This document shows, one piece after another, positions 6,351 through 53,933 of a DNA stretch of 64,000 nucleotides. Within the stretch, counting starts at the first letter, position 1; every line of letters starts with the position of its first letter. Made by a program: the position numbers and the translations under genes. This DNA comes from Eledone cirrhosa (lineage: Eukaryota). The notes beneath the pieces are model-generated. The model did no database searches. It was given only the letters and a program-made list of their open reading frames with translations, and was not told where the DNA came from. The stretch is taken from assembly GCA_964016885.1 (NCBI GenBank), contig OZ024745.1, positions 14,322,001-14,386,000 of the forward strand, given 5' to 3'.

Positions 6351-8771
6351 CAGGGTCTCGGATACTGGAAGCTGAACGTGTCGTTGCCGGCACGTAAAGC
6401 TTACAGTGAACGGAAAAGTAGACTAGTCAAGCAACAGTTAACGGGAGCCATCGTCAACAATAGATGGTGGTACTCTCGCAAGAAAGCAATTAGAATAGAA
6501 TCGATAGGGTATAGCAGAGAGTTAGCCTTAGAGAAAAACAGAATAGAAAGAGAACTAGTAGCAAAGGTAGAGGAGGCACTTAGAAGTGACAACGCGCTAG
6601 AGTGTTAGCGTCGAGAACGGCACTGGACCAGTTCTTCGATGCGAAACACGAAGGCTGCGTGGTCAGAAGCAAAACACGTGCTCTAGGAAACGAAGGAGCG
6701 AAAGCTGTCAGCTGGGCCCGAGTGACGGAGGCAAAAAGTGGAAACAAGTCCACGATTCGGTCTTTGAAAGACCAAAACGGACGCGTGCTACTTGACTCCA
6801 AGCAAATGTGCCCGGCCTTTCAGCGGCACTTTGCGCGACTGTTTGAGCAGAACGACGGTGAGCCGAACGGGGCAATGGACTTTAGTTCATACCTCGACGT
6901 CCTGCCGCGTCTCTCGAACACGTCTCCGTGTTCAGAGGATGGATCGAGGCGATGCACACCAGCATCTGCTCGAGGGTCAAGGTGAACGGCTACCTATCGG
7001 AGCCGTTCGCAATCACGCGTTCCATTCGACAGGGGTGCCCTCTCTCCTCCATTCTGTATGTATTGACTCTAGAGTCACTACTGCGGAAATTGGAGCTGTT
7101 GCAGGGCATCCCTCTAGAACCGGGACTGCGCCAAGCGGCGCCGGCTTATGCCAACGACGTGACGGCAATGGTATCAAGCACCTCGGAATCGGGGTGATCG
7201 GCAACTTACTGAAAGAATACGAAACGCTGACGGGAGCAAAACTAAACCCGGACAAGTCTGTCGGTTTGCAACTCGGTACGTGGAGAGGCAAGCCGATGAC
7301 GTCCGGCAGCGTCGTTGGACGCTGGACGGACGGACCGATGAAATTGCTCGGGGTCTGGTTCGGTCCAGACCTCCAGGTGGAGAAAAGCTGGAACGAGGTC
7401 ACGGCCAAGGTATTTGCACTCAGCCAGAAGTGGGCAGAGTGCAAACTGTCCTTGAAAGGTCGAGCGGAGGTGGCGAACACTTTCATAACGTCCGTCATCT
7501 GCTACCGCTTGACTGTCGTGCCTTGTCCCCGTGAACACCTCGCCAAGATGGAACGCATGCTCTTCCAGTTTCTGTGGAAGAAGCAGGCTCCTCTGGTGAG
7601 GAGATCAGTCTGCTGTCAGAACCCTTCCAACGGAGGGCTGGGAATGCCGTGGCTGATGATGAGCAAACATGCGCTGAGGCTGCGGCATCTCCAGGTATTC
7701 CTCACCGACACCCAACCGGTGTGGGCACCGTTTGTGAGACAGGCTTTCCCACAGCTCGTCTCGCTGACGGAGCTGCAGTCCTGGGTGAAGAAAAGACCGA
7801 AAACGATGGGCGCCTGGCACATTGAATGCGCTCAACGCTCACATTCCTCTTGCAAGCGGGCGCAGAAATCAGTGGAGACTCCACTTCGACATTCTATAGA
7901 GGGATTGTACGTTACAAGGGCGACGACGTGCTCGGAGAGACAATGGGCGTCGAAGACAATGAGTTCACCAGTATGTTTGGTAGGACTTTCCGCCCGGGAC
8001 CTATGGACAACTTCCAGAGGTCCCTGGCCTGGCAGTGCTTCCGAGGAGCTCTACCGGTTTGTGACAAGATCTACAGGCACGGACGCCCCGGCAGGGATCC
8101 TTCCAAGAGGATGTGTCCAAGATGCGCGCAGGACATTGAAATAGTCTTGCACGCAATTGTACACTGCCCGGGCGTAACCGACCTGTGGAACTATGCAGAA
8201 CAACTGCTGTCGCGTATGGGACAAATCCAGTTGACTGCCGAGTCCATAGTAAGGATCAAACCGCCAGCCTCTTTCTAAAACGAAAGAGAGGCGGTTTTCC
8301 TCTGTACGGTGGCTATGGTGAAAGAAGTTATATGGTGGACGAGGTTGAGAGGACTGAGGACAGATGCCTTTCTCTCCGGACAACAATTGATTCCCTTCTT
8401 TAAGTATCACTTTAGAAGCAGAATCAGGGTGGAGAGAGAGGCACTGCACCCCAGTTAATTTACTGAAAGATGGGTGAATGAAGCGAAAATGGCCCGAGTG
8501 ATTGGGCCTTCTCTGTTTATAAGCCTGTAGGTTGAGGAAGATAGCAAAAGGAATAAGGAGCACTTGCACAGCACGCTCCTGGAGTTGAGGGTTGTTCTAT
8601 CGACGGGGTATTAAACAACCCATTTGTGGAGCCTCCCCCCTATTGGGGATTTCGATTGTTGTAATTGTTTGTTTTTATATTTTTTACACGACTAAATGTA
8701 AAATCCCCGGCATGTCTTTGTATTGTCCCCTTTTCTTGTGCGCCCTTGTGGCTAATAAAGAAATATATCTA
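6351..8771 (+). mobile_element. Tx1/L1-clade non-LTR retrotransposon copy A; 5'-truncated, with an internal RT deletion near 6920
   Basis: Motifs GYWKLN, RQGCPLS, AYANDV, GGLG and C-terminal CPRC..E...HAIVHC. ORF2 stop at 8528-8530; 3'UTR ends AATAAAGAAAtatatcta. Confidence 0.93.
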
Positions 8772-20666: not shown

Positions 20667-20903
20667 CCATAATCTAGCTGTTGTCTGTTCTACAGCGTAG
20701 ATGTAATTCACTTCGCGCAGAAGTTTTGTTCAAATTTATTGCGGAAATTTTGTAAGTTCAATTTTAATTTTGATACTATTGTGTAGCTTGACCCCCCGTC
20801 TGAACTATCAGGCGGTGGGTCAGCTCATCTTTACCCCTCCTAGGGGTGAAAAACCTGTTTTTAAAAATTTTGTGGCATAAAAAATTTCAATCGTCTGACA
20901 GGA

Positions 20904-22807
20904 ATGTTAAACGAAGCTAACGAAAATAGTGGTGGGGGGACAGCGGTAAGAGTTGTAAGCTCGCACGCTTTAGTCCCCCCTTCCTTCCCAACTAACGTCA
21001 TAGAGAAGGAAAGAAAAAATAAAATAAAAACAGAAGAATCTGCGGAGAAAAATGACGAAAACACAAATCTAGACATGGATTCCAACAACGAAAAAAAAAA
21101 ATTTGAAAAATTGCATGACAATATTAATACCACAAACAAAGACACGACAAACACAAAAATAACATTTGAAAACAACATCATAACAGAAAGCAAAGCAGAC
21201 GACAAAGTCAACACCAATAATATTTCGTTTGCACAAACAACAAAGAAATCTTTGACATATATACCTGAAAATATTTCAGATGTGGCACAAAGAATTGCAG
21301 ACGCCAAACAATACATAACTGAAGGAGAAAATGGTATTTTATCGGTAAAAATGCCTCAAGAACTCACCAAAGACATTGAAAGTCAAACGGTCGTTTTCCG
21401 CACCATCAACAACATTTCTAAAAAACCTGAACAGCCAACTCAAACAGAAATCAAAACAGTACTTACAGAAGTACTTAATGAAACCACTTTCATAAGAAAA
21501 GACAGACTGTATGGAAGCCTAGCGATTATTATGAAGAACGAATCGGCGGCAAAAAAATGTGCTTTGTCACCGATTCGTTCGAAATTTTTTACCTTTTATC
21601 CATCTTATATGGGTAAAAGAACTCAACGCATATGGCTGGATGCAATGATGCCAGATGTGGACTACTGCTGGCTCATAGCTGGCTTCATCGATCCAGCGAA
21701 TGACAACGTGATTTCCATTGGGAAAACCACAGGCAATGCGTTCAGTGGAACAGGTATAGAGCTTGTAGTGCAAATGAAGCCTGAACGCATCGACCAAATA
21801 CCCGACAGAATCCTATTAGAGGGCCACGGGTATATAAACATTAGCGTGGAGGGGAGAAGGCCGTCCTGTCATATCTGTACAGGCAGAGGGCACCTGAAGG
21901 CGGCTTGTCCCCAACTCAACAAAAAGAAAACCCTGCTACCAACACCAGCTCCACCACCACAACAGATAAACAAACAACAAAACTCAGTCCCACCCAACCC
22001 GTCTCTCAGTAAAACTACACCACCACCACAACACAAACAGTCACAACACATTACCCCAAAACAAAATACAGGCCCACCCAACCCCTCACTCAATAAAACA
22101 ACACAACCACCGCAGCCACAACACACAACACAGTCTAACATAGTGACATCCATCTCCCCCACAAAGAAAACCAACACGGAAACATTACCAGCAAACATAC
22201 CTCTTCCCTCCAACACTGAAGATAACCCAACGAATTCGGAGGAAGAAACGGAGTCCTTCAGACAGATTAATAGGAAAAAAAGAAAACATGTGCAAAACAC
22301 ACAAGGCCAAACAACCCCCACCCAAATGTCAACACAATCCAACAAAACACAAAACACCCCTCCAGCAACAAACAAAACAAACCTGCCCCTCCCCTCTTCG
22401 AAACACTCACACCATCCGAAAAAAAGACATTACACTATACTTACATCAACAGAAACAATAATAAATTAAATGAATTCATAAACAATAATCCTTCGGTACA
22501 AACCGAAGGTGTAAACTTTGTTTCTTCAGAAAACTACCCACATTTAAAATTAATAAAGATCCCAATGAACCTCTACCAAAAACTAAAAAAGGATTTTAAG
22601 GAGGACGTAGGACCACCCTCTGTCAAACCCATAAACCGCGTCCTACTAAAAAGCTTTCCCCCTCCCCTTCCCCTCCCCAACACAACTCCAAACACCCCAA
22701 CCCCACCACACACTGACGACCCCACACCACCACAAGACACCCCTTCACCCAACACCCCCGACCCCATGGAAGTCGTGCAACCCGAACCCCGGGAAGCAGA
22801 AAGGTAG
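20904..22807 (+). pseudogene. ORF1 (gag-like nucleic-acid-binding protein) of copy B; interrupted at 22467
   Basis: 521-aa ORF with CHICTGRGHLKAAC (CX2CX4HX4C) and a P/T/Q-rich tail. The C-terminal piece 22565-22807 is homologous to copy C 28448-28759. Confidence 0.88.
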
Positions 22808-22840
22808 GTCTCTACACTCTCCTTTCGCTTTGCCGCCCAC

Positions 22841-25800
22841 ATGGATGTGTTAAGAGTAGGATGTTTGAATGCAGGTGGCCTGGGCTCAACTTGGAAGCAA
22901 GCAAAGCTTCTAAATGACCTCAGGTCATGTGGTATAAATGTAATGGTTATCTGCGAGACTCGGATCAGCGTCGCGCGGCAGCTGGCCCCTACCTTCGATG
23001 ACTTTGAGGTGCATGCATCTCTCTGTCAACCTGGAGGTGGGGTGGGGTTGTCGTACTGCTGCAAAAACACCTGGGTCTTGCCGTACAGGTTGTTCACTCG
23101 GACCCGGAGGGTCGTTTGTTGGTGCTAGACGTTGGCAGTAGTGAAGGTGCGGCCTTGAGACTGGTCGCCGTCTACTCCCCTTTCGGAGCTGAACGGCCCG
23201 ACTTCTTCCAGCGTTTGGAGACTTTTCTGGGAACGTCGGGTTCCCTGCTTCTAGCGGGGGATTGGAATGACATCCTAGATGCACGTTGGGACTATGCGGG
23301 AGCATGTCCTAATAGAGGGGGGTGTAACAGCCTCAAGGGGTTACTCGACCGTTTTAACTTGATCGATAGATATCGACTAGATTTTCCAACTGTGCCTACC
23401 TGGACTTGGACGAACCATAGTGGTCAATCTAGATCGTAGTTAGATAGATTCTTAGTTAGAAGTAAGGATAGGGACATATTAAGCTGTCCAGAAATGCTCA
23501 CGGTTGGCTATACGGATCACAAATTAGTGACCTGCGTAGTCAATCTCGAGAAAACACATAAACAGGGTCCCGGTTACTGGAAACTTAATTTGTCTTTAAC
23601 GGCAAAAGAGACTTACAGAAACCGGATTAGCAGATTAGTTAAGGAGAGGTTGACGGGTGCAATCGTCAACAACCGATGGTGGGCATCTCTCAAAAGAGAG
23701 ATTAGAACAGAATCAATAAGTTATAGCAAGATGTTAGCTGCCGATAGGAATAGAAACGAGAAAGAATTAACAGGTAAATTAGAAGAGGCAATCAAGAGCG
23801 AAGATGTGGCGAGAGTACTGGCACCGAGGACGGCCTTGAACCAGTTTTTCGATGCAAAGCACGAAGGCTGCATCATTCGAAGTAAAATACGTGCTCTAGG
23901 TAATGAGGGGGCCAAAGCCGTTGGCTGGGCCCGCGTGACAGAAGCTAAGAGTGGAAATCGATCCACCATCCGGTCGTTGCAAGACGAGGATGGACGGGTG
24001 ATCCGGGAGCCTAAGCAGATGTGCGAGGCCTTTCAAAGGCACTTTGCCCAATTATTCGGGGGAGGCGAGGGTCCGGCCGGGGACGTGGATTTCGGTCCAT
24101 ACCTCGACGGCCTGCCGCGTCTCTCGAGCGAAGAGGCAGAGTCTTGCGAGGGACCAATCTCGTCTGATGAGATCGGGGATGCGCTGAGCCAATGCAGCAG
24201 ACGCAAATCTCCAGGTCTCGATGGTATACCTTACGAACTTTATTTAGCAATGCCGGTCTTCTTCTCCGAACTCCTCGAAGCGGTCTACTGCAATTGGCAG
24301 CAGAACGGGAGAATTCCTTGTTCTGTAGCCAAGGGCGTAGTCTCGCTGGTGAGGATGGACGAGAACAAGGGGGATAGTATAAATAATTTTCGGCCCAAAC
24401 CCTGCTAAACACAGAGTTAAAGATTTTGGCCAAGGTGTTAGCAAAGAGGTTGGCGCTTGTCGTGGGTAGCCTGGTGGGAGATGCGCAGACATGTGCTATC
24501 CCATCCAGGTCCATTCACGATAACCTCCACCTCATGCGATACATCATAGAGAGGGTTGGCAACAAACCCGGCTTCGGTGGGGGCCCTGATCAACTTGGAT
24601 CAGTCTAAGGCCTTCGATAGGGTCGACCATGGTTACCTGGATGCGGTGCTAGTGGCGGCTGGGTTCGGTCCTGTTTTCAGAGGCTGGATCACTGCCTTAC
24701 ATAGCAACCACATCTGTTCTAGGATCAAGGTGAACGGCTACCTTTCGAAGCCGTTCGAAATCACACGATCCATTCGACAGGGGTGCCCTCTCTCCTCCCT
24801 TCTGTACGTATTGACTCTCAAGCCTTTACTGAGGAAGTTGGAGTTGTTGCAGGGTATCCCCCTGGAACTAGGATTGAGCAAAGCGGTGTCGGCCTACGCC
24901 GATGACGTAACAGTAATGGTATCGACCGACTCGGAGATCGAGGCGATCGGTACCTTACTGGAGGATTACGAAAGGTTGTCAGGAGCGAAACTGAACCGGG
25001 AAAAATCCATCGGGCTGCAACTCGGAACGTGGAGAGGCAGACCGATGCCTCCCGACGGTGTCGTCGGACACTGGACGGAGGGCCCGGTAAAGTTGCTTGG
25101 GGTTTGGTTTGGACCGGACCTCCAGGTGAAAAAGAACTGGGACGAGGTTACGAACAAGGTGTTTGCACTAACCCAGAAATGGGCCAAGTGTAAGCTGTCC
25201 CTAAAAGGCCGGGCGGAGGTGGCGAACATTTACATAGCGTCCGTCACTTACTACCGCCTGACTGTCGTGCCTTGCCCTAAGGAAACACTCACCACCATGG
25301 AACGCATGCTCTTCCAATTTCTTTGGAAGAAGCGCCCTCCTATGGTGAGAAGATCCATCTTCTGCCAACAACCTTCGAAAGGAGGGCTGGGGATGCCGTG
25401 GTTGATGATGCGTAGGCACGCATTAAGGCTACGGCACCTACAGGTATTCCTCACTGGTCAACCGGTGTGGGCTCCGTTCGTGAAACGAGCCTTTCCGAGA
25501 CTCGTCTCGCTCGCCGAGCTGCAGTCCTGGGTCAAGCAAAGATCCGGAAAACTGGGAGACTCGCACACTGAGTGTGCTCAGGCGCTCAGGGCTCTCTGGC
25601 AAGCGGGCCAGGCCATCGGTGGAGAATCCACCTCATCATTCTATAGAGGGCTGGTGGCTAGCAGGGGCGATGACACCCTTGGAGAGTCGCTGGACATGGA
25701 GGAGGACGAACTGGCCAGCCTGTTCGGTAGGACTTTCGGCCCGGGACCAATGGACAACTTCCAGAAGTCACTAGCCTCGCAGTGCTACCGGGGGGCTCTA

Positions 25801-26277
25801 CCCGTTCGAGAGAGGCTCTACAGACACGGGCGCCCGGGCAGGGATCCCTCGAAAAAGATTTGCCCTAGATGCGTGCGTCACGAAGAAACCGTTGCGCACG
25901 CATTGGTGCAATGTCCGGGCGTGGCTGATCTGTGGGGCTACGCCGAACGACTGCTGTCGCGGGTGGCGCCGATTCGATTGACCGCCGAGTCCGTGATGAC
26001 AATCAAACCGCCTCCCCTCTTCACAAGGGAAGCAAAGGCGGTTTTTCTGTGCGTAATAGCCATGTTGAAAGAGGTTGTTTGGTGGACACGATTGAAAGGT
26101 CTGAGGTCAGGCAACTTCCTCTCTGGCCATAGTCTGGTCTACTTCTTCCGATATCACTTCGGAAGAAGGATAAGAATGGAGAGAGAGGTGCTTGGCCCCA
26201 GCCAGTTTTATGAAAGGTGGGTGATAGTGGCGAGAATGGCTCGTGTAAATGGGCCTTCTCTGTATACCATCCTGTAG
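22841..26277 (+). pseudogene. ORF2 (APE endonuclease, reverse transcriptase, zinc finger) of copy B
   Basis: Motifs LN..GL, ETR, GDWN, S*LDR, TDHK, KSPGLDG, DQSKAFDRV, RQGCPLS, YADD, CPRC..EETVAHALVQC. Frameshifts near 23040, 24400 and 24580; premature stop at 23437. Confidence 0.95.
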
Positions 26278-26504
26278 GTAAAGAAGTGAAGGAGAGGGGA
26301 GCACCTTCTCCCCGGGCAAAGGATTGCACACTTTTTCGGGGGTGTGTGCAACCTCCATCACGTCCCCTCCCTTTTGAGGTTGTTTTCGATTATTTTCATT
26401 TTATACCCTTTTTACTCGATTGTATGTAAACTCCCCCTTTGTATTTGTCCCTTCTTTTTATGCCTTTATGGTAAATAAAGAAATATATCTATCTGTCTAT
26501 CTCT

Positions 26505-29500
26505 CTTTGTAGCTGGACGCACACTGGTAAGTTTCTGTCAATTTATTTACAAAAAACAGAAATTCTTGTTTAAAAAAACACATTGTTTTGTAGATTAGCC
26601 CCCAGGCTGAAATGTCAGCTGGTTGGCAATCTCATTTTTCGCTCCCACAGTGGCGAAAATTTAATTTGAAATTAATTTGAAAACTGTTTAAAATTTTTTA
26701 ATATTTTGCCATCAGCTATAGCAAGCGTTCAAAGAACGCGAGCGAACGTTGAAGAAGGAAAAAGAAAAGAAGAAATAGACTTTAACGTTGCTAAAAACTT
26801 TGCCTGTATCGAGGTAGTTGACAACAAAGTTTTGTGTAACGAAAGTCAAGTAGACGACACAAACAAAATTGAATCGCACAGTGAACCACACAGTATACAA
26901 CACACACCAAAATCAACAGAAAAAACAATTGACTCAACTACAAACGGAAAAGCCGACAACAACAACAACAACAACATAATAACTTATACAGAAATAGTCA
27001 CAAGTAATAATAACGTTACTTCTAACTCCGCATGTATTGGCGTCACTATGGAAACCAATATGAACAACAAAAATAAAAACAAGATCGAACCACACATAGT
27101 ACAACAGACGGAAAAAACAACAGAAAATAAAACTATTGACACAACTACAAACGGAAAACCCGACAACCACAACAACAACAACAACACCAAAACAACTTTT
27201 GCACAAAAAGTCACCAAGACACAAGAATTCAAGGATTTCGATATCTCCAATGCGAAACAGATGCTCTCCTAAGCAAAGGAGTTTATCACTTTCGGTGAAA
27301 ACGGTGGATTTCAGATAAACTCACCCCAGAAATTCGTCTAGAAATATTTCGAAGGACAATTACCTTCAGAACTGTTTCAAATGAAACAAAACGACCAACA
27401 TTCCTCAGTCAAGGGGAGATTGAGGCAACCTTGAAAGAGATATTGCCAGACATTGACTTTATGCAGAGGGCCAAACAGTACGGGAGTATTTCGGTACTCC
27501 TCAAAAGCGAGGCCCTTGCACAAAGATATTCAGTGACGCCAATACTGTCACAAAAATACACCTTTTTCCCTACATACCCAGAAAAAGGACACAAAAAATT
27601 AGATTTTCAAACATACCACCACATATTAATATTTGGTGGATATTGGCAGGATTTTTAGAGGAGAGAAAAGACACTATTCTTTCCATCAAAAAGTCAACCA
27701 GACACACCTGGTCTGGTACAAATTTGGAGATTCTGGTGCAAATGAGCCCGGAAAGAATCTCCAAAATACCAGAAAAAGTGCTGGTGGACAACAACAGCCA
27801 CATAAACATTTCGGTAGCGGGCCAGAAACCTCATTGCTTTCGTTGCAATAGCACCACACACTTAAAGGCCTCCTGCCCTTCACAAACACATTCAACCAAA
27901 ACAATACAAAAGAAAACACTGTTACCAACACCAACACCAAAACAACCACTAAACAACAACAACAACAGACGAAACCAGCAAACACAACAAAACAAACAGC
28001 CACTCAACCAACAACAACAGAGAAAACACAGACAACACCCCTGAAGAACACAGCCCCACCCATCCCACTCCATCAAACACTACCACAAACACACACACCG
28101 AAACACCACCACCACACAACATACCCCTACCCCATACTCCTGACGATGATTATTCATCGACAGATGAGGCGGCTTCTCCTACTTCTTCACTTAAAGAAGG
28201 AGAGCCTCGGAAATCTAAAAAACAAAAAAAGAGACACCACAAAACCCCAAAAACTCCAATCACCAACACCAACACACAACCACAGACACAAACAACAACA
28301 CAAACAACACCACATTCAAACATCCCCCTACCAGCAAAACCAACACCAACACCACCCCAAACACAAATAAAAAGAAAACTCCCAGACGAACAACAATAAA
28401 AACACAAATAACAATACGCATACACCAACACAAACAACAAGAGTTTTATGGAGGTCATCTCCCAAAACCCCAAGGTGGAGACGGAGGGCAAAACTTTCGT
28501 CAAAGCAGAATTGTCTCCACACCTAAAACTAATAAGGGTTTCGATAGAAACCTATCACAAATTGAAAAAACAGTTTTCGTTGGATGTTGGCAACCCCTGT
28601 CAAAAACCTATTAACCGCATCCTATTAAACTGTTTCCCCACCCCACCCAACACCCCCACCAGAACTGAAATGGAGATTGAAGAACCTGATCTCCAGGAAA
28701 CGAAAAGTAAGTGGACCTTTTCGTCCTTTTCGCCAACTCTTCTCCACCAACATGGCTAGTTTTCGTGTTGGAAGCGTGAATGTGCGTGGCCAAGGGATGC
28801 CCTGGAAACAGGGCCAACTTTTAAACGACCTTAGCTCACACGGTATGGATGTGATAGCCATCACCGAGTCCAGGATCCACAACAAGCAGCAACTAAACCC
28901 CATCTTCGTCGACTTTGAGATCTACACATCTCTCTGTCAGCCAGGAGGTGGAGGGGGAGTGGCTGTCTTGTTTCGGAAGAACCTGGACGTCAAAGTACAG
29001 CAAGTACACTTGGACCCGGAGCGTAGACTGGTAGTCCTAAACATGAACAGTATTGGAGGTGGAGCCTTCAGACTGGTGGCCGTTTATGCCCGACCGGGCA
29101 ATCGCAATCACGGCCAGACTTCTTTAAGCGTCTAGAGTCTTTTCTGGGAACATCTCGGTCCTTACTTTTAGCGGGGGACTGGAATGGTATCCTAGATGCA
29201 CGATTGGACTATGTGGGAGCATGTCCCAGTAGAGGGGGTGCAACGGCCTCAAAACGTTAATCGGCCAATTCCAACTGGCCGACTGGATTTCCTGACTGCA
29301 CAGTGGACGTGGGCAAACCGCAGCGGGACATATAGATCGTATTTAGATAGGTTCTTCATTAGAGAAAGGGACAAGGAGATGTTAAGCTGAACACGGATGC
29401 GGAGAGCTGCGAAAGGCTGATCACAGCGGGCGAAATAGAAGATGCCCTAAGCTGCTGTGGGAAACGCAAATCACCCGGTTTATATGGTCTACCCTATGAG

Positions 29501-31775
29501 TTTTACATAAGCATGCCAGACTTGTTCTCTGGCGTCCTCGAATCGGTCTATTGCAACTAGCAGCAGAACGGGAGGAGTCCCAGTTCTGTAGGTAGAGGCG
29601 TTGTAACGTTGATCAGGAAAGATGAGAACAAGGGGGATGAGATAAACAATTTCAGGCCCATAACTCTGCTCAATACAGAGTTAAAGATTTTGGCCAAGGT
29701 GTTAGCAGCGAGGCTGGCGCTTGTCGTCGAGAATCTGGTAGGGGAAGCGCAAACGTGTGCAATCCCGACCAGGTCCATACACGACAACCTCCACCTCATG
29801 CGATACATCATAGAGAGCGTAGGGTGTAAACCCGGCTTCGGTGGGGCTCTGATCAATTTAGATCAGTCTAAGCCATTTGATAGGGTCGACCATCAATACT
29901 GGGAAGCGGTTCTCAAGGCAGCCGGCTTCGGTCCCGTCTTCAGAGCCTCGATCGCTGCCATGCACAACAGCATCTGCTCGGCAGTCAAGGTTAATGGCTA
30001 CCTATCCGAGCCATTCCAAATCATGCGTTCCATTCGTCAGGGGTGCCCATCTCCTCCATTCTGTATGTACTGCCTCTCGAGCCATTACTGCGGAAGCTGG
30101 AGCTGTTGCAAGGCATCCCGATCGAACCAGGACCACGGAAAGCAGCATCGCCTATGCCGACGACATAACCGTAATGGTGTCGAGCACCTCGGACATCGGA
30201 GTAATCGGCAACCTATTACAGGAATACGAAACGTTGACAGGAGCAAGACTAAACCCAAACAAGTCTGTCGGTTTGCAACCCGGCACATGGAGAAGCAAAC
30301 CCATGCCTTCCGACAGTGTCGTTGGACGTTGGACGGAAGGACCGGTGAAATTGCTCGGGGTCTGGTTTGGGCCAGACCTCCAGGTGGACAAGAACTGGAA
30401 CGAGGTCACCCAGAAGTAGGCTGAGTGCAAACTCTCCTTGAAAGGTCGAGCGGAGGTGGCGAACACTACACATAGCGTCCGCCATCTACCGCTTGACAGT
30501 CGTGCCTTGTCCCCGCGAATACCTCACCAAAATGGAACGCCTACTCTTCAAGTTCCTCTGGAAGAAACAGGCTCCATTAGTGAGGAGATCCATCTGCTGT
30601 CAACACCCTTCCAACAGAGGGCTTGGTATGCCGTGGCTGATGATGCGCTAACACGCACTGAGGCTACGCCATCTCCAGGTGTTCCTGACCGGCGAACCGG
30701 TGTGGCTGTCGTTTGTGAGACGAGCTGTTCCACAACTTGTCTCACTAACAGAGCTGCAGTCCTGGGTCAAGCGAAGACCGAAAATGGTCGCCTGGCACCT
30801 CGAGTGCCTTCAGGCGCTCGCATCCCTCTACCAAGCGGAAACGGCAATCAGCGGAGACTCCACTTCGACATTCTATAGGGGATTAGTGGAGGATAAGTGC
30901 GACGACGTTCTCGGGGAAACTCTAGGCACCGAGGACGACGAACTGACCAGTCTGTTCGGGAGGACTTTCCGTCCAGGGCCTATGGATAACTTCCAGAGGT
31001 CTCTGGCCTGGTAGTGCTACTGAGGAGCTCTACCAGTTCGAGACAAAATCTACAGGCACGGACGCCCTGGCAGAGATCCTGCCAAAAGGACCTATCCAAG
31101 ATGCGAGCAGGACATCGAAACCGTTCTGCCCCAATTATTCAGTGCCCAGGGGTGACCGACCTGTGGAATTATGTTGAACAGCTACTGTCACGTGTAGGGC
31201 GCATCCAGTTGTCAGCCGAGTCCATCGTGAGGATCACCCCGCCGCCTTCATTTATGAATGAAGGAGAGGCGGTCTTCCTCTGCCTGGTGGCTATGGCGAA
31301 AGTGGTAATATGGTGGACGAGGTTAAAAGGACTGAGGGCAAGCACTTTTCTCTCCGGACAACAACTCATCCCCTTCTTTAAGAATCACTTCAGAAGGAAG
31401 GTGTGAGTGGAGAGAGAGGTGCTATACCCCAGTAAATTCGCTGAACGGTGGGTGAATGTGGCAAAAATGGCCCGAGTGAATGGGCCTTCTCTGTATATAA
31501 ACCTGTAGGTTGAGGAAGATAAACAGAGGGAAGACAGGAACACCTACAAAACGTGTTCCTGGTGTTGAGGGTTGTTCTATCCACTAGGTGTAAAACAACA
31601 CCGCAGTAGCGTTACCCCCTCCCCCCTATTGGGGATTTCAATTGTTTTATTTTTATATAGTTTATTGTTATTTATCATTGTTAAAGATTTTATGTAAAAC
31701 CCCTGCCATCTTGTAATGTCCCATTTTTGTACGCCCCTGTGGCAAATAAAGAAAGATATCTATCTATCTATCTGT
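26505..31775 (+). mobile_element. Tx1/L1-clade copy C, head-to-tail after B; internal deletion near 29388 and many stops
   Basis: ORF1 pieces at 26706-28759 (CFRCNSTTHLKASC); ORF2 from ATG 28752 to TAG about 31508 (GDWN, YLDR, DQSKPFDRV, YADD); ends AATAAAGAAAGATATCTATCTATC. Confidence 0.93.
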
Positions 31776-39973: not shown

Positions 39974-45066
<5,093 letters not shown>

Positions 45067-45159
45067 CCTCCTCCTCTACTTCACTAATATTGGTCAACTG
45101 TAATGTATGAATAATTTCTGTCTCAATGGTTTGGGACAGAAATTATTGAGAGATCACAG

Positions 45160-47145: not shown

Positions 47146-47146
<1 letters not shown>

Positions 47147-47421
47147 TGATGAAACAAAGGCACCATAGTAAAAACTAATATATGGAACATTATATTATGT
47201 AACATTATTTTAATTTATATTCCTTTGAGTTCCGATGAGCCACTCTGTTTTTTTAAATATGTTAATTATTTTCAACTGAACCAGATCAATTATGATACAT
47301 AGTCATCTGATCCAGAAATATTATACGGAGTAGCGAAACAATTGTAAACGGGCATTAAAGTACCAGTAATGGACTGGGTAATTGATGACCTTGTGTCTAA
47401 AGTAGAAACAATTATTATTAA

Positions 47422-47486
<65 letters not shown>

Positions 47487-47582
47487 TCTACATTCCTTAC
47501 ATCAAACTAAATATGTTGACAATCTTTTAATAATGTCTTCCTTGTGAAATTTGTGGTCTTGTTTTGCCTAACTAATGAATAT
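47146..47582 (+). repeat. 5' pseudo-LTR containing a SINE-tail insertion (about 47358-47415) and expanded (ATT)n
   Basis: Identical by eye to 50597-50922 apart from the insertion and repeat length. Confidence 0.92.
47222..47352 (+). ncRNA. Type I hammerhead ribozyme candidate (pLTR copy 1)
   Basis: CCGATGA at 47232-38; stem II gccactctgt/acggagtagc; GAAA at 47335; stem III ACAATTGT; GUA cleavage triplet at 47344-46; weak stem I gtt/aac. Confidence 0.72.
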
Positions 47583-47808
47583 TTCCAGATTTGCGCACCT
47601 AACCTCTGCATGAACCCAGCCACCTAGCTGCTTTCTACTGCATATTGCACATTGAGCACATGCCTTTACGCTTTGGCTTCTAACTAACTCATCAATCTTT
47701 CCTCTCATATCTCCTCTACTATCTCAATCTCTCTCTTTAAGATTGATTACTCTTGAACTGTGTATACTTGAGCTCCCGTAGTTGAGCTATTTACTGTTAG
47801 AAGTCACC

Positions 47809-50314
47809 ATGTTGAGCAAACAGGAACTCAGAATATCACTTAAGTCCATACCTATTCCGGACAGAAAGACATACCTCAAACTATTAATACAGAGTGTCAA
47901 CTCTTTCATCCGAAGAATAAGATGGAAAGCGTACCACTTTGATCGTGCGGTTGCTGCTGACGCCGGAAGTACAGCAAATAGATATGGATTTGCCACATGC
48001 AAGAACCCCCCACACAACATCCTGCTGGATCCTTTTGAGAAAGATCTATTCAACTTCATCAGGAGCATTAAGTTCAAAAAGCATTATAGACACAGGAATA
48101 ACTTCCTCACTACATTAGCAACAACTATAAAAAAATTTAAGGATAGCAACCTCTTACATGTTATGTCTGACAAAACCAAAAAATCTATACACCATGACTC
48201 CTGAAATTTACAACTCTTTCCTTCTTAAAGAACTCAACAAAAACTATAAAAAAACTACACCCTCCAGTGTAAACGTACTTAACCGAAAAGCCCAGGCATT
48301 GGTTAAGGACTTGCATTTGGATAGATTTACCCACCCTTATGTACCAACAACCCCAAGGTTCTCTCTCAAGGACCACAAGCCAAACTTTATAGAGAACCCA
48401 TCCATTAGACTCATAGGCCCAACCACATCTGACCTGGGCCGCATCAGTAAGAACATCCTTGATAGGATAATCCCTGGGCTACGGGATGATACCACCTACA
48501 AGTTGTGGTCCAACACCGGCCAAGTCATCAGATGGTTCTCCGATCTAAGGTCCAAGCAATCTATGAGGTTCATCCAATTTGATATAGACAGCTATTACGC
48601 GTCAATAACCCCGGAACTGCTCAACAAAGCACTAGCCCTAGCAACCACCAACTCGGACATAACCAATAATGAGAATAACATCATACTCATGGCTAGGCAG
48701 ACTATCATTGAATTCAACGGAGCACTCTGGACTAGAAAAGATAGAACAGATAACTTTGACATTACGATGGGCTCAAGTGACTCCGCGCAAGTCACCGATT
48801 TAGTTGGGATTTACCTATTACGTAACATTAGAGCCGAAATCCAACCCATGCAAGGTGGAATATACAGGGACGACGCCCTATTTGCAGTCCACAATTGCAC
48901 TAATCGGGGAATCGATTTGCTTAAGAAACAATTTCATAGATTCTTCAAAAATAACGGTCTCCCTATCACCATCGAGCTGAACCATAAAGTAGTAAACTTC
49001 CTAGACGTCACCCTTGATCTCAACAAAAACCTTTATAACCCTTACCATAAACCAGGCAAAATACTCACATATATTAGCCCACACTCTAACCACCCACCGG
49101 CAGTCATCAGAGCAGTAATCAAATCTATCTCCTATAGGATCTCAATGCTATCAGCAAATGAAGAGATATTTATAAACCACGCACAATATTATAATAAGGC
49201 TCTCTCTGAATCTGGTTATAAACAATCAATTTATTACATACCAAAATGCCATAACACAGCAACTCACCATAATAAACATAACACTAGAACTAGAAATACC
49301 TTAGCATATAGCCAGATTCGCCGGAATTTTAGCAGTAACAGCACCTATACAGGGAACTTTAATGGTGGCAGCGGCCTGCTCCCCACTCCTAGTAGCAAAC
49401 TAAGAATCAACCCTAGAATAGGAATGAGAAATGGGATGACAAATAACAAACCCCCAGGTAATAATAACCCTAGGAAGGCCCCTACCAACTCCACTAGAAC
49501 CCCTAGAAGGAATAGGCCTAGAAATATCACCTGGCTTAACCCACCATTCTCATTTAATCTAGCCACTAATATCCCCAATCGCTTCGTCTCTATCCTATCC
49601 AAACACTTCCCCCCTAACTATAGATATTACAAACTCTTTAATAAAAACAACATTAAAATCTCATTCTCCACTACACCTAACCTAGCTAGCCACATCGCGT
49701 TCAGTAATCATCATAAGCTAAGACACTATAACTCCCACACCGCGGTACCACCACCCCTATCAAATACACCACACCACTACACCAATAATTACTCTAGTAG
49801 CACACCTCCCCCATCTAATCCTTCTAGCACGGACCAACTGCTTAGGTTAAATAACCCTACTCTCACTAACCGCAGAAGCAACTGCAACTGCCGGTACCCC
49901 AATGCATGCCCATTAAATGGACACTGCCTGACACCCAACATAGTCTATAGGTGCACAGTTGAGACTGCTTCGAATACCAGCTCTTATATCGGGTCTACCT
50001 CTAACCCTTTTAAGGTACGCTATAACGCGCACTCTTTTTCCTTCCGAGACCCTAGCAACAGATGTTCGACATCGCTAGCTAGGCTCATTAAAAACCTTAA
50101 ATTAAACAAAGTTCAACACTCACTAAAATGGGATATCGTAGCTAGGTCCCAACCGTTCAATGGACGAAGGAAATCTTGTGATCTCTGTGTTACGGAAGCA
50201 TATTACATAACTCTATCAAGACCTCTACCAATTAACGATAGAACAGAGGTAACCATTAGCTGTCAACAACGAAGGGCTAATTCCTTCGCCAATAGAGTTT
50301 TTGACCCAACTTAG
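47809..50314 (+). CDS. Penelope-like RT/GIY-YIG endonuclease polyprotein with a single +1 frameshift in the A6 run at 48178-48183
   Basis: Motifs SLKSIPIP, RRIRWKA, SDKT, LKDHK, FDIDSYYASI, MGSSDS, YRDD, FLDV, WLNPPFS, CNC..CPL.G.C, IVY..YIG, RY..H, CDLC..E. Removing one A joins ORF 47782 to ORF 48158 (DKT-KNLY). Confidence 0.9.
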
Positions 50315-50596
50315 TCATGTAGCCCCATCTCTAATTGTAGCTAATAAGTTAAATTGCTATGAACAACTCGATAATTATAAGTTACCTCCCCTACATTGTC
50401 TCAATTAAATAATTTAAATACTAGCACATAACTATAAAATACACACAATCTCTAATCTCTCGAGAAGTTACTTCCCCTGAATCCACCCTCTAATTAGTAA
50501 GGTAAATATGCCCTTTGGCAGCCATCTTGTTACCCATAGGCAGATCTCACACAATGCAGCCTCAAGCGATGAGTACTGCTTGATTATGGCTGACAG

Positions 50597-50922
50597 CTGA
50601 TGAAACAAAGGCACCATAGTAAAAACTAATATATGGAACATTATATTATGTAACATTATTTTAATTTATATTCCTTTGAGTTCCGATGAGCCACTCTGTT
50701 TTTTTAAATATGTTAATTATTTTCAACTGAACCAGATCAATTATGATACATAGTCATCTGATCCAGAAATATTATACGGAGTAGCGAAACAATTGTAAAC
50801 GGGCATTATTATTATTATTATTATTCTCTACATTCCTTACATCAAACTAAATATGTTGACAATCTTTTAATAATGTCTTCCTTGTGAAATTTGTGGTCTT
50901 GTTTTGCCTAACTAATGAATAT
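50597..50922 (+). repeat. 3' pseudo-LTR
   Basis: Direct repeat of the 5' pLTR (offset 3451 before the insertion). Confidence 0.92.
50673..50803 (+). ncRNA. Type I hammerhead ribozyme candidate (pLTR copy 2)
   Basis: Same sequence as 47222-47352; CCGATGA at 50683; predicted cleavage after 50797. Confidence 0.72.
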
Positions 50923-50930
50923 ATATATAC

Positions 50931-51008
<78 letters not shown>

Positions 51009-51220
51009 GATAACAAATTATCATTATAGGTAATACAGCTAGAGGTTGTGAGTACTCCGTATTGGGGATAGTTTTAACGTACGGCGTTGTTTGACTCAGC
51101 AAGAGGTTTCCTTAGTTAGGTGGCGAGTTCTCGGGAATTCCTATGCAGGTTAATCTTGGAGTAATAATAGTGAAAGAGTGAAGATTAACATGGTCAACAG
51201 TACAAAAAGGGTTCTATTTA

Positions 51221-51332
51221 CAGTATTAACAATTGTTTCATTGATTAGGGTGTCTAAAAATTGCTAATCACTTGAAGTTGTGTCACTCAATTTTAAATAC
51301 ATGTATGCCTAATCAAATCATCGGAATAACTG
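51221..51332 (-). ncRNA. Type I hammerhead ribozyme candidate (inverted arm of the second PLE)
   Basis: Reverse complement of 53431-53542 with an intact core. Confidence 0.7.
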
Positions 51333-51479
51333 ATTAAAATTATACACGGCGTTTGTAATATACTAGGAAAATTCAAACCACAATCTAAACTATAATAACA
51401 TAAGAAGCGCGGGACTGCGTACGGTTTATAATGTTTTATCCCCTTAGTAAAATAAGTTGGATTACTTTGAATAAATAAT

Positions 51480-51664
51480 TGTTTCTACTTTTGGCACAAG
51501 GCCAGCAATTACCCAGCAATTACTGGTGCTTTATTTTATCGACCCCGTAAGGATGAAAGGCAAAGTTAATCTCGGCGGGATTTGAACTCAGAATGGCAAA
51601 GGCCGTAACTCTATGCGTCAAAGCATGGCGTCCGACCCTCTACCGATACTGCCAATCTACCGCC
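51480..51664 (-). mobile_element. SINE family 1 full copy inside the Helitron, with TSD
   Basis: TSD ctttgaataaataat at 51465-51479 and 51665-51679. Confidence 0.93.
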
Positions 51665-51854
51665 CTTTGAATAAATAATGAATGAATATTACATAATTTA
51701 TCCACTAAATTTCGTGGCTGTTCATTAAATATATGTTATTACTTATTTAAAGATTCACTTCTTTAAAATTTTCAAATGTCAACACTTCCGGTTAGTGATC
51801 GTTTAAATAAATATTCATATATTTCTGTCACTAATTTTCTCCTAATACAGTTTA

Positions 51855-52214
51855 TATATAATATCGTCTTTTTTTTTAATGTATCATGGATTACGTTACT
51901 GATTACATAAGGCAGTGTAACACAGTCTTCGTTCAATTTCTGTGTATATTGTCAATTACGATTTTATTTGATCATATCTACATGCATATATACTTGCGTA
52001 TAATATCAATATACACACTACACATGCTAGCAGATATATAATATCGTCTTTTTTTTAAATTTATCATGGATTACGTTACTGATTACATAAGAGAGTGTAA
52101 CACAGTTTTCGTTCAATTTATGTGTATATTGTCAATTACGATTTTATTTGATGTATCATATCTACATGCATATATACTTGCGTATAATATCAATATACAC
52201 AATACACATGTTAG
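51855..52214. repeat. About 180-bp tandem duplication within the Helitron
   Basis: atatataatatcgtctttttttt...acacatg.tagc occurs twice. Confidence 0.85.
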
Positions 52215-52547
52215 CCGAAAACCACCCGAAGGGTGGTTTTTCTGCTAGTATCAGTAATAAAGAAAGAATAAGAAAAAAAGAAGAAAGAAAAAGAGAGAGA
52301 GAGAAAAAAAAGAAAAAAGAAAAAAAAGAAAAAAGAAAAAAGAAAAAAGAAAAAAGAAAAAAGAAAAAAGAAAAAAGAAAAAAGAAAAAAGAAAAAAGAA
52401 AAAAGAAAAAAGAAAAAAAAAACGAGAAAAAAAACAATAAATAAATAATAATAAATAAGTTAGAATGAAGATGATAAAAATAAGTAAAAAGAAACTATGT
52501 GTGAAAAAAAGTGAACATAATATGATTGTTGAAAATAGTTGTGAACT

Positions 52548-52797
52548 AATGAACACAACAACGCTCGCCAATAAAATCTGGCAGCTTAAGGATACAAACC
52601 AAAAATACGGGTTTAGCTGGTTGAAATTGTCGGGGGCAAAGGCCTACAAAAATGGAATGACCCACTGCGGACTTTGCAATATAGAGTTGCTGCATATTTT
52701 AAAGTATGACAAAATGCTGCTTAACAGCAAAACAGAACGGTCAATTTTCTGTAGGCATAAAGCAGCTACTAAATTCACAAATTACAAACCAACATGA
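52548..52797 (+). pseudogene. GIY-YIG C-terminal fragment of a Naiad-type PLE
   Basis: TTLANKIWQLK...W...Y......CGLCNIE...I....LLNSKTE....CRHK aligns by eye to the end of ORF 48158-50314 but is clearly divergent. Confidence 0.85.
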
Positions 52798-53430
52798 TTC
52801 GATCCAACAATCCCATAATTCAAACTGAACCACTTAGAGTCTATTATAATAACCCATTATTATTAACTGTCAATAAATCAACTAATCACTGAATCAACAT
52901 CATAACCTCCTAACCTTTCTTTCTTTCACTCTCTTTCCCTAAAACTATTTCACCTCTTCCATTATATCCTATCATGTTCTCTTCACCTCTCACATAACTT
53001 CCAATTTATTAATTTATCCTTTATTTATCACTGTACTATTTCTTCACAATATAACCCTTTGTAATTTAACCAATACATATGTGTTTATATTTAATATTTT
53101 CATATTTATATCAACACATCTTTACACTTACATGCCACTATAACTTTAACTACCACCACCACCACAACTATTTTCAACAATATGTTCACTTTCTTTCACA
53201 CATATATATATTTTTTTACTTATTTTTTATCAACTTCATTCTAACTTATTTATTATTATTTATTTATTATTTATTATTTTTTCTTTTTTCTTTTTTCTTT
53301 TTTTCTTTTTTTCTTTTTTTCTTTTTTTCTTTTTTCTTTCTCTCTCTCTCTTTTTCTTTTTCTTTCTTTATTACTGATGTTGTGATTTGAATTTTCCTAG
53401 TATATTACACACGCGGTGTATAATTTTAAT

Positions 53431-53542
53431 CAGTTATTCCGATGATTTGATTAGGTATACATGTATTTAAAATTGAGTGACACAACTTCAAGTGATTAGC
53501 AATTTTTAGACACCCTAATCAATGAAACAATTGTTAATACTG
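53431..53542 (+). ncRNA. Type I hammerhead ribozyme candidate (second PLE family)
   Basis: Stem I cag-t-tatt/aata-ctg; CCGATGA at 53439-45; stem II ttgattagg/cctaatcaa; GAAA at 53524; stem III ACAATTGT; GUU triplet at 53533-35. Confidence 0.72.
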
Positions 53543-53933
53543 TAAATAAAACCCTTTTTGTACTGTTGACCATGTTATTCTACACTCTTTCAGTATATAT
53601 ATATATATACATACTTATATATATTATATATAGATAGATATACACACATATTCGTATATATATATACACGCGCATATATATGTATAAATATGCGCGTATA
53701 TGTATATACTCATACATACATATATATAGAATTACAAAAGAAAGAGGCTGTGTCGTTACCAATAAATATTATTTAGAATACGTGGGGGAAAACACAAATA
53801 CAAGGACAATTCCCGCTCTTCTGTGGATCACTAAAGTTTCGATATATATATATATGGTCATGTATATACATGCATATATACATGCATATATACATACATA
53901 TACATACATGCACTCACACACACACACGCGCAC

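Follow-up and report, generated by a model that had tools for sequence, protein, structure and literature searches.

Candidate hammerhead ribozymes with an extended stem II in Hydra-clade Penelope-like elements of Eledone cirrhosa

The hammerheads described for the Hydra clade of Penelope-like elements (PLEs) by Craig et al. (2021, PMC8557442) are of type I, occupy a 3' position in the pseudo-long terminal repeat (pLTR) and have a short palindromic stem III. All 26 Hydra rows of File S2 of that paper show a CUGA core and a loop 2 of 3-10 nt, and 14 of the 26 start stem II with U-U. The minimal hammerhead ribozymes (min-HHRs) of Cervera and De la Pena (2014, PMC4209133) have a longer helix II (7-8 bp), a short helix I and a palindromic helix III, are highly variable within a genome and are proposed to cleave as dimers; their descriptor fixes ^cuganga, with a stem II of 3-7 bp and a loop 2 of 3-10 nt. 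All these features of clade, type, position and helices recur in four motifs from two PLE families, here called family 1 and family 2, in a 64,000-nucleotide window from Eledone cirrhosa (contig OZ024745.1, positions 14,322,001 to 14,386,000), the whole stretch of DNA analyzed here. Judged from sequence, the motif is a conserved RNA structure under selection, of a kind already known, whose stem II extension appears to be undescribed.

The differences from the published Hydra rows consist of an arm of 78-96 nt, its inner helices, a C at position 4 (C4) and, in sublineages, a U at position 9 (U9). The G10.1-C11.1 pair of the min-HHR consensus is mostly absent here, and an internal domain is not described in the available part of that paper. 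The nearest precedents for a long spacer are Selaginella PLE-X1, with a 9-bp stem II and a ~35-nt loop flagged as deviating (the longest in the table), and the 'HHR_half_core' cases, eight Naiads in which 35-50 nt separate the half cores (PMC8557442); both belong to other clades and are shorter, and no spacer structure or covariation is given for them. A U-to-C change at position 4 (U4C) and a U10.1-U11.1 pair are natural hammerhead variants, the former lowering activity in vitro yet supporting viroid infectivity (Perreault et al., 2011, PMC3088659). Whereas both are rare there, C4 occurs here in thousands of copies and several lineages; an A-to-U change at position 9 (A9U) is not named in the core-variant section of that paper. 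As in PAc, a Poseidon-clade element, the hammerhead lies upstream of the element's 3' end and integrated copies derive from uncut RNA, although protein assistance was tested for PAc and is proposed here (PMC11167929). A literature search covering neither Lunse et al. (2017) nor Arkhipova et al. (2017) gave no report of a structured PLE hammerhead stem II of 60-96 nt, and the 3' sequence GAAACAATTG was not found in the supplement text of PMC8557442, where FASTA line breaks could hide a match. Provisionally, what is new is the long arm (58-97 nt, where the Hydra loops in print measure 3-10 nt) with its conserved internal motif, and not the core letters.

Motifs in the window and across the genome

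The four motifs lie where a preliminary description of this DNA had placed them, CCGATGA and GAAACAATTG being confirmed in the window, and the cut positions it gave coincide with the predicted sites (Table 1). GAAACAATTG starts at 47335, 50786 and 53524 on the forward strand and at 51239 on the reverse strand, and nowhere else in the window. It is separated from the core by 96 nt in family 1, whose two copies are identical and lie on the same strand 3,451 nt apart, and by 78 nt in family 2. Both families have, in the region of stem III, the short, dimer-permitting 8-nt palindrome ACAAUUGU, with a predicted self-duplex of -6.4 kcal/mol and no predicted monomer hairpin. Stems I and II close on the core, stem I weakly in family 1 (GUU/AAC and a bulged UCC/GGG) and as CAGU/ACUG plus AUU/AAU in family 2. 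The complementarity of stem II claimed for each family holds in family 2, where 9 bp follow a first U-U, and is broken in family 1, where 10 positions include a C-A mismatch at pair 3 and one U-G; the 10.1-11.1 pair is G10.1-C11.1 in family 1 and U-U in family 2. The weak stem I of family 1 and the U-U of family 2 had been read correctly, as had the general type, a minimal type I hammerhead with a palindromic stem III in a PLE pLTR. Relative to the consensus CUGANGA...GAAA...NUH, the window copies carry U4C, 2,463 relatives are canonical and one sublineage has A9U. Of 122 Rfam matches in the window at E<=5, none is to a hammerhead model.

Some upstream sequences deserve mention. Within window 53410-53462, a sequence upstream of the family 2 core can pair with that core and with the 5' strand of stem II. 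The resulting hairpin, a predicted alternative to the hammerhead that would prevent its formation, is not evidently kept in other subfamilies. A second, canonical CUGAUGA is located 86 nt upstream of the family 1 core, in a possible hairpin CAGCCAU/AUGGCUG (window 50520-50612 and 47146-47153), and in a family with 20-nt spacers (L190, L199) a CUGAAGA is found ~45 nt upstream of the core; a second hammerhead could be drawn from neither.

Relatives were counted with exact patterns in the whole 3.0-Gb genome, the reversed pattern serving as control; the spacer ranges of the patterns overlap and the counts are not additive. CCGATGA-N60-90-GAAACAATTG gave 1,962 matches against 3 in the control, the same pattern with CTGATGA 2,463 against 3, and the family-1-type pattern 1,573 against 1. 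Spacers of 37-66 nt, mostly from families with 58-62 nt, gave 3,198 matches (control 13), while those of 99-129 nt were fewer and heterogeneous (338; control 22). Stem II spacers fall into classes of 11-12, 20, 58-62, 71-72, 78-90 and 94-97 nt, all on the same stem III. The long architecture is genome-wide and chance is excluded. As had been foreseen, the min-HHR descriptor, with its fixed core and short loop 2, would miss these motifs. Related loci were not found in metagenome contigs.

Base pairing, arm structure and core positions

Covariation was assessed on 187 motifs from the loci examined, 165 of them with spacers of at least 55 nt, in 41 clusters with one medoid each. Matched to its own partner, stem II pairs at 6.66 of 8 positions, and at 4.83 when the partners come from other clusters; for stem I the values are 3.51 of 4 and 2.05. 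Own-partner pairing was reached by 0 of 20,000 permutations, the best of four registers being taken on both sides of the test; as the clusters are related, this is not a strict probability. The 24 coarser clusters agree, and the proposal that both stems are kept by compensatory change across lineages is borne out. Run on a MAFFT alignment, RNAalifold did not recover stems I and II, the arms being out of register there, and anchored counts were used instead.

Inside the family 2 arm a conserved inner domain can be delimited (Table 1), the motif of which alone has 6,488 genome matches against 25 in the control. The GUA and UAGAC flanking the inner hairpin are near-invariant in the family-2 clade. 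In a 34-row alignment of the family-2 group, from which the hairpin structure was also derived, 90.4% of 542 cells are paired against 81.6% in shuffles (0/500), and two-sided changes occupy 69 cells against 23 (0/500); two-sided change affects 8 of the 16 pairs, a count reached by 35 of 500 shuffles. Anchored counting in 12 representatives, two mis-anchored ones retained, gave 6.08 against 5.33 (8/20,000). The family 2 arm is more stable than its shuffles (z -3.2), and 11 of 24 cluster medoids have z < -2. The family 2 insert, suspected from the start of being a separate RNA domain, does behave as a conserved structured one. Its near-invariant NGUA/GAC may be compared with 5'-AGUA/GAA-3', the loop E/bulged-G pattern with its non-canonical pairs. 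A selenocysteine insertion sequence or kink-turn was rejected for the arm, there being no AUGA/GA quartet, no bulge-GA strand and no Rfam match at that place.

The core letters tell another story. U4C had been regarded as a defining, selected feature of the long variant, and this is not borne out: CUGAUGA outnumbers CCGAUGA in the same long architecture, C4 and U4 alternate within lineages, and C4 was counted by eye in 53 of 100 short-stem copies among the matches listed, quite apart from its being a published variant. U4C is therefore neither specific to the long arm nor required for it. A view of CUGAUGA as the CpG decay product of CCGAUGA was likewise discarded, since CCAATGA, the product of the mirror decay, counts only 140 copies (control 2). 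Position 4 would be a tolerated, repeatedly switching one. Thirty loci were chosen with nothing but the inner motif as criterion; some of them are duplicates or form inverted pairs. Of these, 23 have an exact 3' box GAAACAATTGTH. As to the 5' core, CYGANGA was scored in 15 by script and in one more beyond the spacing window; 5 loci have CUGAUGU, 3 have CCGGUGA, and 6 have a core that is truncated or altered in another way. The A6G core of those 3 loci hinted at a master lineage, which was rejected because genome-wide there are 178 scattered copies, as expected if dead copies decay.

Host elements and their relatives

Both families are Hydra-clade PLEs as far as their sequence features go. Of the features defining this clade (PMC8557442, section 11), one open reading frame (ORF) that combines a reverse transcriptase (RT) with a C-terminal endonuclease (EN) of the GIY-YIG type, RWK, DKT replacing DKG and a CxCX5C linker were found, together with CxxC near a conserved E, insertion into (TA)n, and a pLTR with an inverted truncated copy. 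In the family 1 ORF the motifs read RWK (RRIRWKAYHFD), DKT (MSDKTKK), YRDD, CNCRYPNAC (the CxCX5C), VYRC..YIG and CDLC, with CQQ where CxH is described for the Hydra clade, and no CCHH. As Pfam returned no domain for two family 1 frames at E<=0.1, the assignment is based on these motifs together with 107 homologues, among them annotated ones of octopods, sea cucumber and anemone. The preliminary description had chosen Naiads for comparison; Naiad identity is rejected, the endonuclease being C-terminal here and N-terminal in Naiads.

Family 1, flanked by (TA)n tracts, is an almost complete element with pLTR direct repeats that are 100% identical (47146-47357/50597-50808 and 47465-47582/50805-50922). 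Family 2 is a truncated element carrying two hammerheads on opposite strands, which therefore cannot share a transcript. Its endonuclease remnant is 29-34% identical to the family 1 type and 81-85% to family-2 loci; an inverted duplication surrounds it (window 52336-52543 and 53163-53368). Long open frames at window 6768-8144, 20865-31406 and 40395-45110 probably belong to other retroelements.

Table 1. Features of the two element families and their hammerhead motifs in the window.
Feature	Position	Strand	Details
Family 1 upstream pLTR	47146..47582	+	5'-truncated copy adjoining (TA)n
Family 1 hammerhead, copy 1	47222..47352	+	core CCGAUGA 47232-47238; 96-nt stem II arm 47239-47334
Copy 1, 3' part (GAA-ACAAUUGU-A)	47335-47346	+	predicted cut after 47346 (GUA)
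Short interspersed nuclear element (SINE)-like repeat fragment	~47356-47423		interrupts family 1 upstream pLTR just 3' of cut site
Family 1 ORF, RT and C-terminal GIY-YIG, Hydra-clade	47809..50314	+	one frameshift near 48180-48200
Family 1 downstream pLTR	50597..50922	+	ends in (TA)n
Family 1 hammerhead, copy 2	50673..50803	+	CCGATGA from 50683; predicted cut after 50797 (GUA)
Family 2 inverted 5'-truncated copy (pLTR)	51167..51407	-	241-nt inverted repeat with 53356-53596, 92%
Family 2 hammerhead	51221..51332	-	core 51324-51318; 78-nt arm; predicted cut after 51228 (GUU)
Family 2 endonuclease C-terminal remnant	52459..52797	+	CGLC, LNxxxE, CRH
Family 2 hammerhead	53431..53542	+	core 53439-53445; 78-nt arm 53446-53523; predicted cut after 53535 (GUU)
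Family 2 arm, conserved inner domain	53463..53511	+	GUAUU...UAGAC internal loop closing a two-part hairpin

In the genome, a Hydra-type ORF lies sense-upstream of 18 of 37 family-1 and 10 of 23 family-2 motifs in 1.5-kb flanks. A full-length Hydra-type element (L204; G000:C1:121326500-121331700) has an intact frame of 760 aa (L204:747-3029, minus strand) flanked by two CUGAUGA hammerheads with 90-nt arms, its protein being 39% identical to that of family 1. In a FastTree analysis of 15 genome copies and 15 database homologues (599 columns, partial rows, named Hydra references left out), the 78-90-nt families form one clade (0.999) that mixes C4 and U4 and includes L204, at 50-55% protein identity. 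Family 1 stands apart at 36-45% identity to this clade and groups weakly (0.84) with the short-stem clade having 20-nt spacers. The inserts of families 1 and 2, on separate branches, are without evident common sequence, and the arms may have grown independently or been lost from a long ancestor.

The 58-62-nt and 71-72-nt groups share this architecture. Structured spacers of 58-62 nt with the same stem III (L183-L202, L260-L264) often occur as short inverted pairs with no ORF nearby, and these families are possibly non-autonomous partners. Two same-strand hammerheads 1.25 kb apart with strongly paired 72-nt arms (L153/L220; G000:C1:114593700-114598700), with no Hydra ORF match, are possibly retrozyme-like. 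Among the loci screened, a PLE ORF could not be firmly tied to the 58-62-nt, 71-82-nt (L152-L154, L220) or L151-type groups, endonuclease matches being found in L189 and L262 only and in neither directly sense-upstream. A further repeat (L255-L257) with CYGAUGU, an 89-nt spacer and GAAACAAUUGUC shows no clear stem II and is doubtful as a hammerhead. An abundant SINE-like repeat (window 47356-47423, 51472-51682 and many other places) has a 3' tail resembling GAAACAATT and produces false matches to loose hammerhead patterns.

Proposed mode of action and its alternatives

The favored reading, to which we give a probability of about 0.55, is that the motifs cleave weakly, and that only as dimers or when assisted by the element's protein, and that the arm serves for folding or for docking a protein. 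If tandem copies such as the two of family 1 were read through into one transcript, their ACAAUUGU palindromes would pair with each other as a helix III of 8 bp, and this shared helix would complete two cores. Cutting after GUH would then set free an RNA of unit length. Stabilization of the three-way junction would fall to the long arm, in place of the contact between loops 1 and 2 that is missing from minimal hammerheads, and the invariant GUA/UAGAC internal loop of the family-2 clade would be a binding site. Cleavage would be slow or regulated, because the RNA that became integrated was uncut at this site. Min-HHRs do not cleave as monomers and do so weakly as dimers (PMC4209133), and a PLE hammerhead that needs the element's protein has been found dispensable for insertion in vitro (PMC11167929). 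A bolder proposal, which we hold to be rather unlikely, is that Hydra-clade PLEs of this lineage repeatedly made stem II the carrier of an additional RNA domain, which in the family-2 clade would be a conserved protein-binding or allosteric module gating cleavage. If true, an animal transposon would contain a regulated hammerhead of natural origin, and short-loop descriptors would have missed a sizeable class of PLE ribozymes.

Several observations weigh against the favored reading. With spacers of 6-36 nt, mostly 11-12 and 20 nt, the same stem III has 14,361 matches (control 13); since the most numerous relatives thrive with a stem II of 11-20 nt, the arm is not required for the success of the clade. 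The family 1 arm is no stabler than its shuffles (z = +0.08), 1 of 25 pairs shows two-sided change in an alignment of 18 family 1 copies (91% identity), and the family 1 consensus fold pairs the core CCG with a 3' CGG and not stem I. The core-open fold of the window copies lies 0.8-5.4 kcal/mol above the predicted minimum. Across clusters the 10.1-11.1 pair is usually non-canonical (U-U, A-A, A-G, C-A), and a broken palindrome recurs in 3 of the 30 sampled loci. The A9U core CUGAUGU is amplified: among 100 matches listed of 2,101, 49 belong to the family-2 group, 38 to the unrelated SINE-like repeat and 13 to others (by eye), which extrapolates to ~1,000 copies in family-2 sublineages. The copies listed for the five largest clusters all continue past the cut site, by ~60 nt in family 2 and ~125 nt in family 1. 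Finally, the permutation and shuffle controls ignore relatedness between clusters. Selection for catalysis is, given the amplified A9U sublineage and copies running past the cut site, not supported.

Part of this evidence also fits a largely lost catalysis, with the fold kept as an RNA handle for the RT/EN protein, for packaging or for positioning reverse transcription so that it begins internally, 60-125 nt downstream, and with core changes, U4C and A9U among them, accumulating as cutting is unneeded. The amplified A9U sublineage, the non-canonical 10.1-11.1 pairs and the origin of copies from RNA uncut here would all be expected, and PAc hammerhead mutants left insertion in vitro unaffected (PMC11167929). 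However, C3, G5, A6, G8, GAAA and UH are fixed in lineages with no more than 36-55% protein identity, switching at the level of lineages is seen at positions 4, 7 and 9 only, and the A9U lineages retain stems I-III (as in L253, L254, L258 and L259), often with G10.1-C11.1. A largely lost catalysis is considered improbable, if worth keeping in mind.

More doubtful still is a passive accretion, whereby the loop 2 of an ordinary Hydra min-hammerhead took up sequence, only closure of stem II being selected and the arm being functionless. It would account for arms that appear unrelated in sequence between lineages (58-62, 71-72, 78-90 and 94-97 nt), for the unremarkable stability of the family 1 arm, for the greater abundance of short-stem relatives and for the weak grouping of family 1 with the 20-nt clade. 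It sits poorly with the covarying inner helices and near-invariant GUA/UAGAC loop of the family-2 clade, with an arm length tightly held within a clade, with the scarcity and heterogeneity of 99-129-nt inserts, and with the stable folds of nearly half the medoids. Chance matching of short motifs, or an artefact of the assembly, which the missing Rfam match and the GAAACAATTGT-like tail of the SINE-like repeat (38 of the 100 matches listed for one loose pattern) might suggest, can be set aside in view of the genome counts for both long patterns, the covariation of stems I and II, and contigs from public runs that cover the family 1 pLTR (one sample, possibly the source).

With six spacer classes and U4, C4 and U9 cores, all combined with the same stem III, a single genome offers a graded series, some members of which are young, near-identical copies and one of which has an intact ORF. 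Such a series makes it testable what selection keeps, be it cleavage, protein binding or the fold. Descriptors with a loop 2 maximum of 10 nt undercount PLE hammerheads, which bears on claims that some PLE groups lack them.

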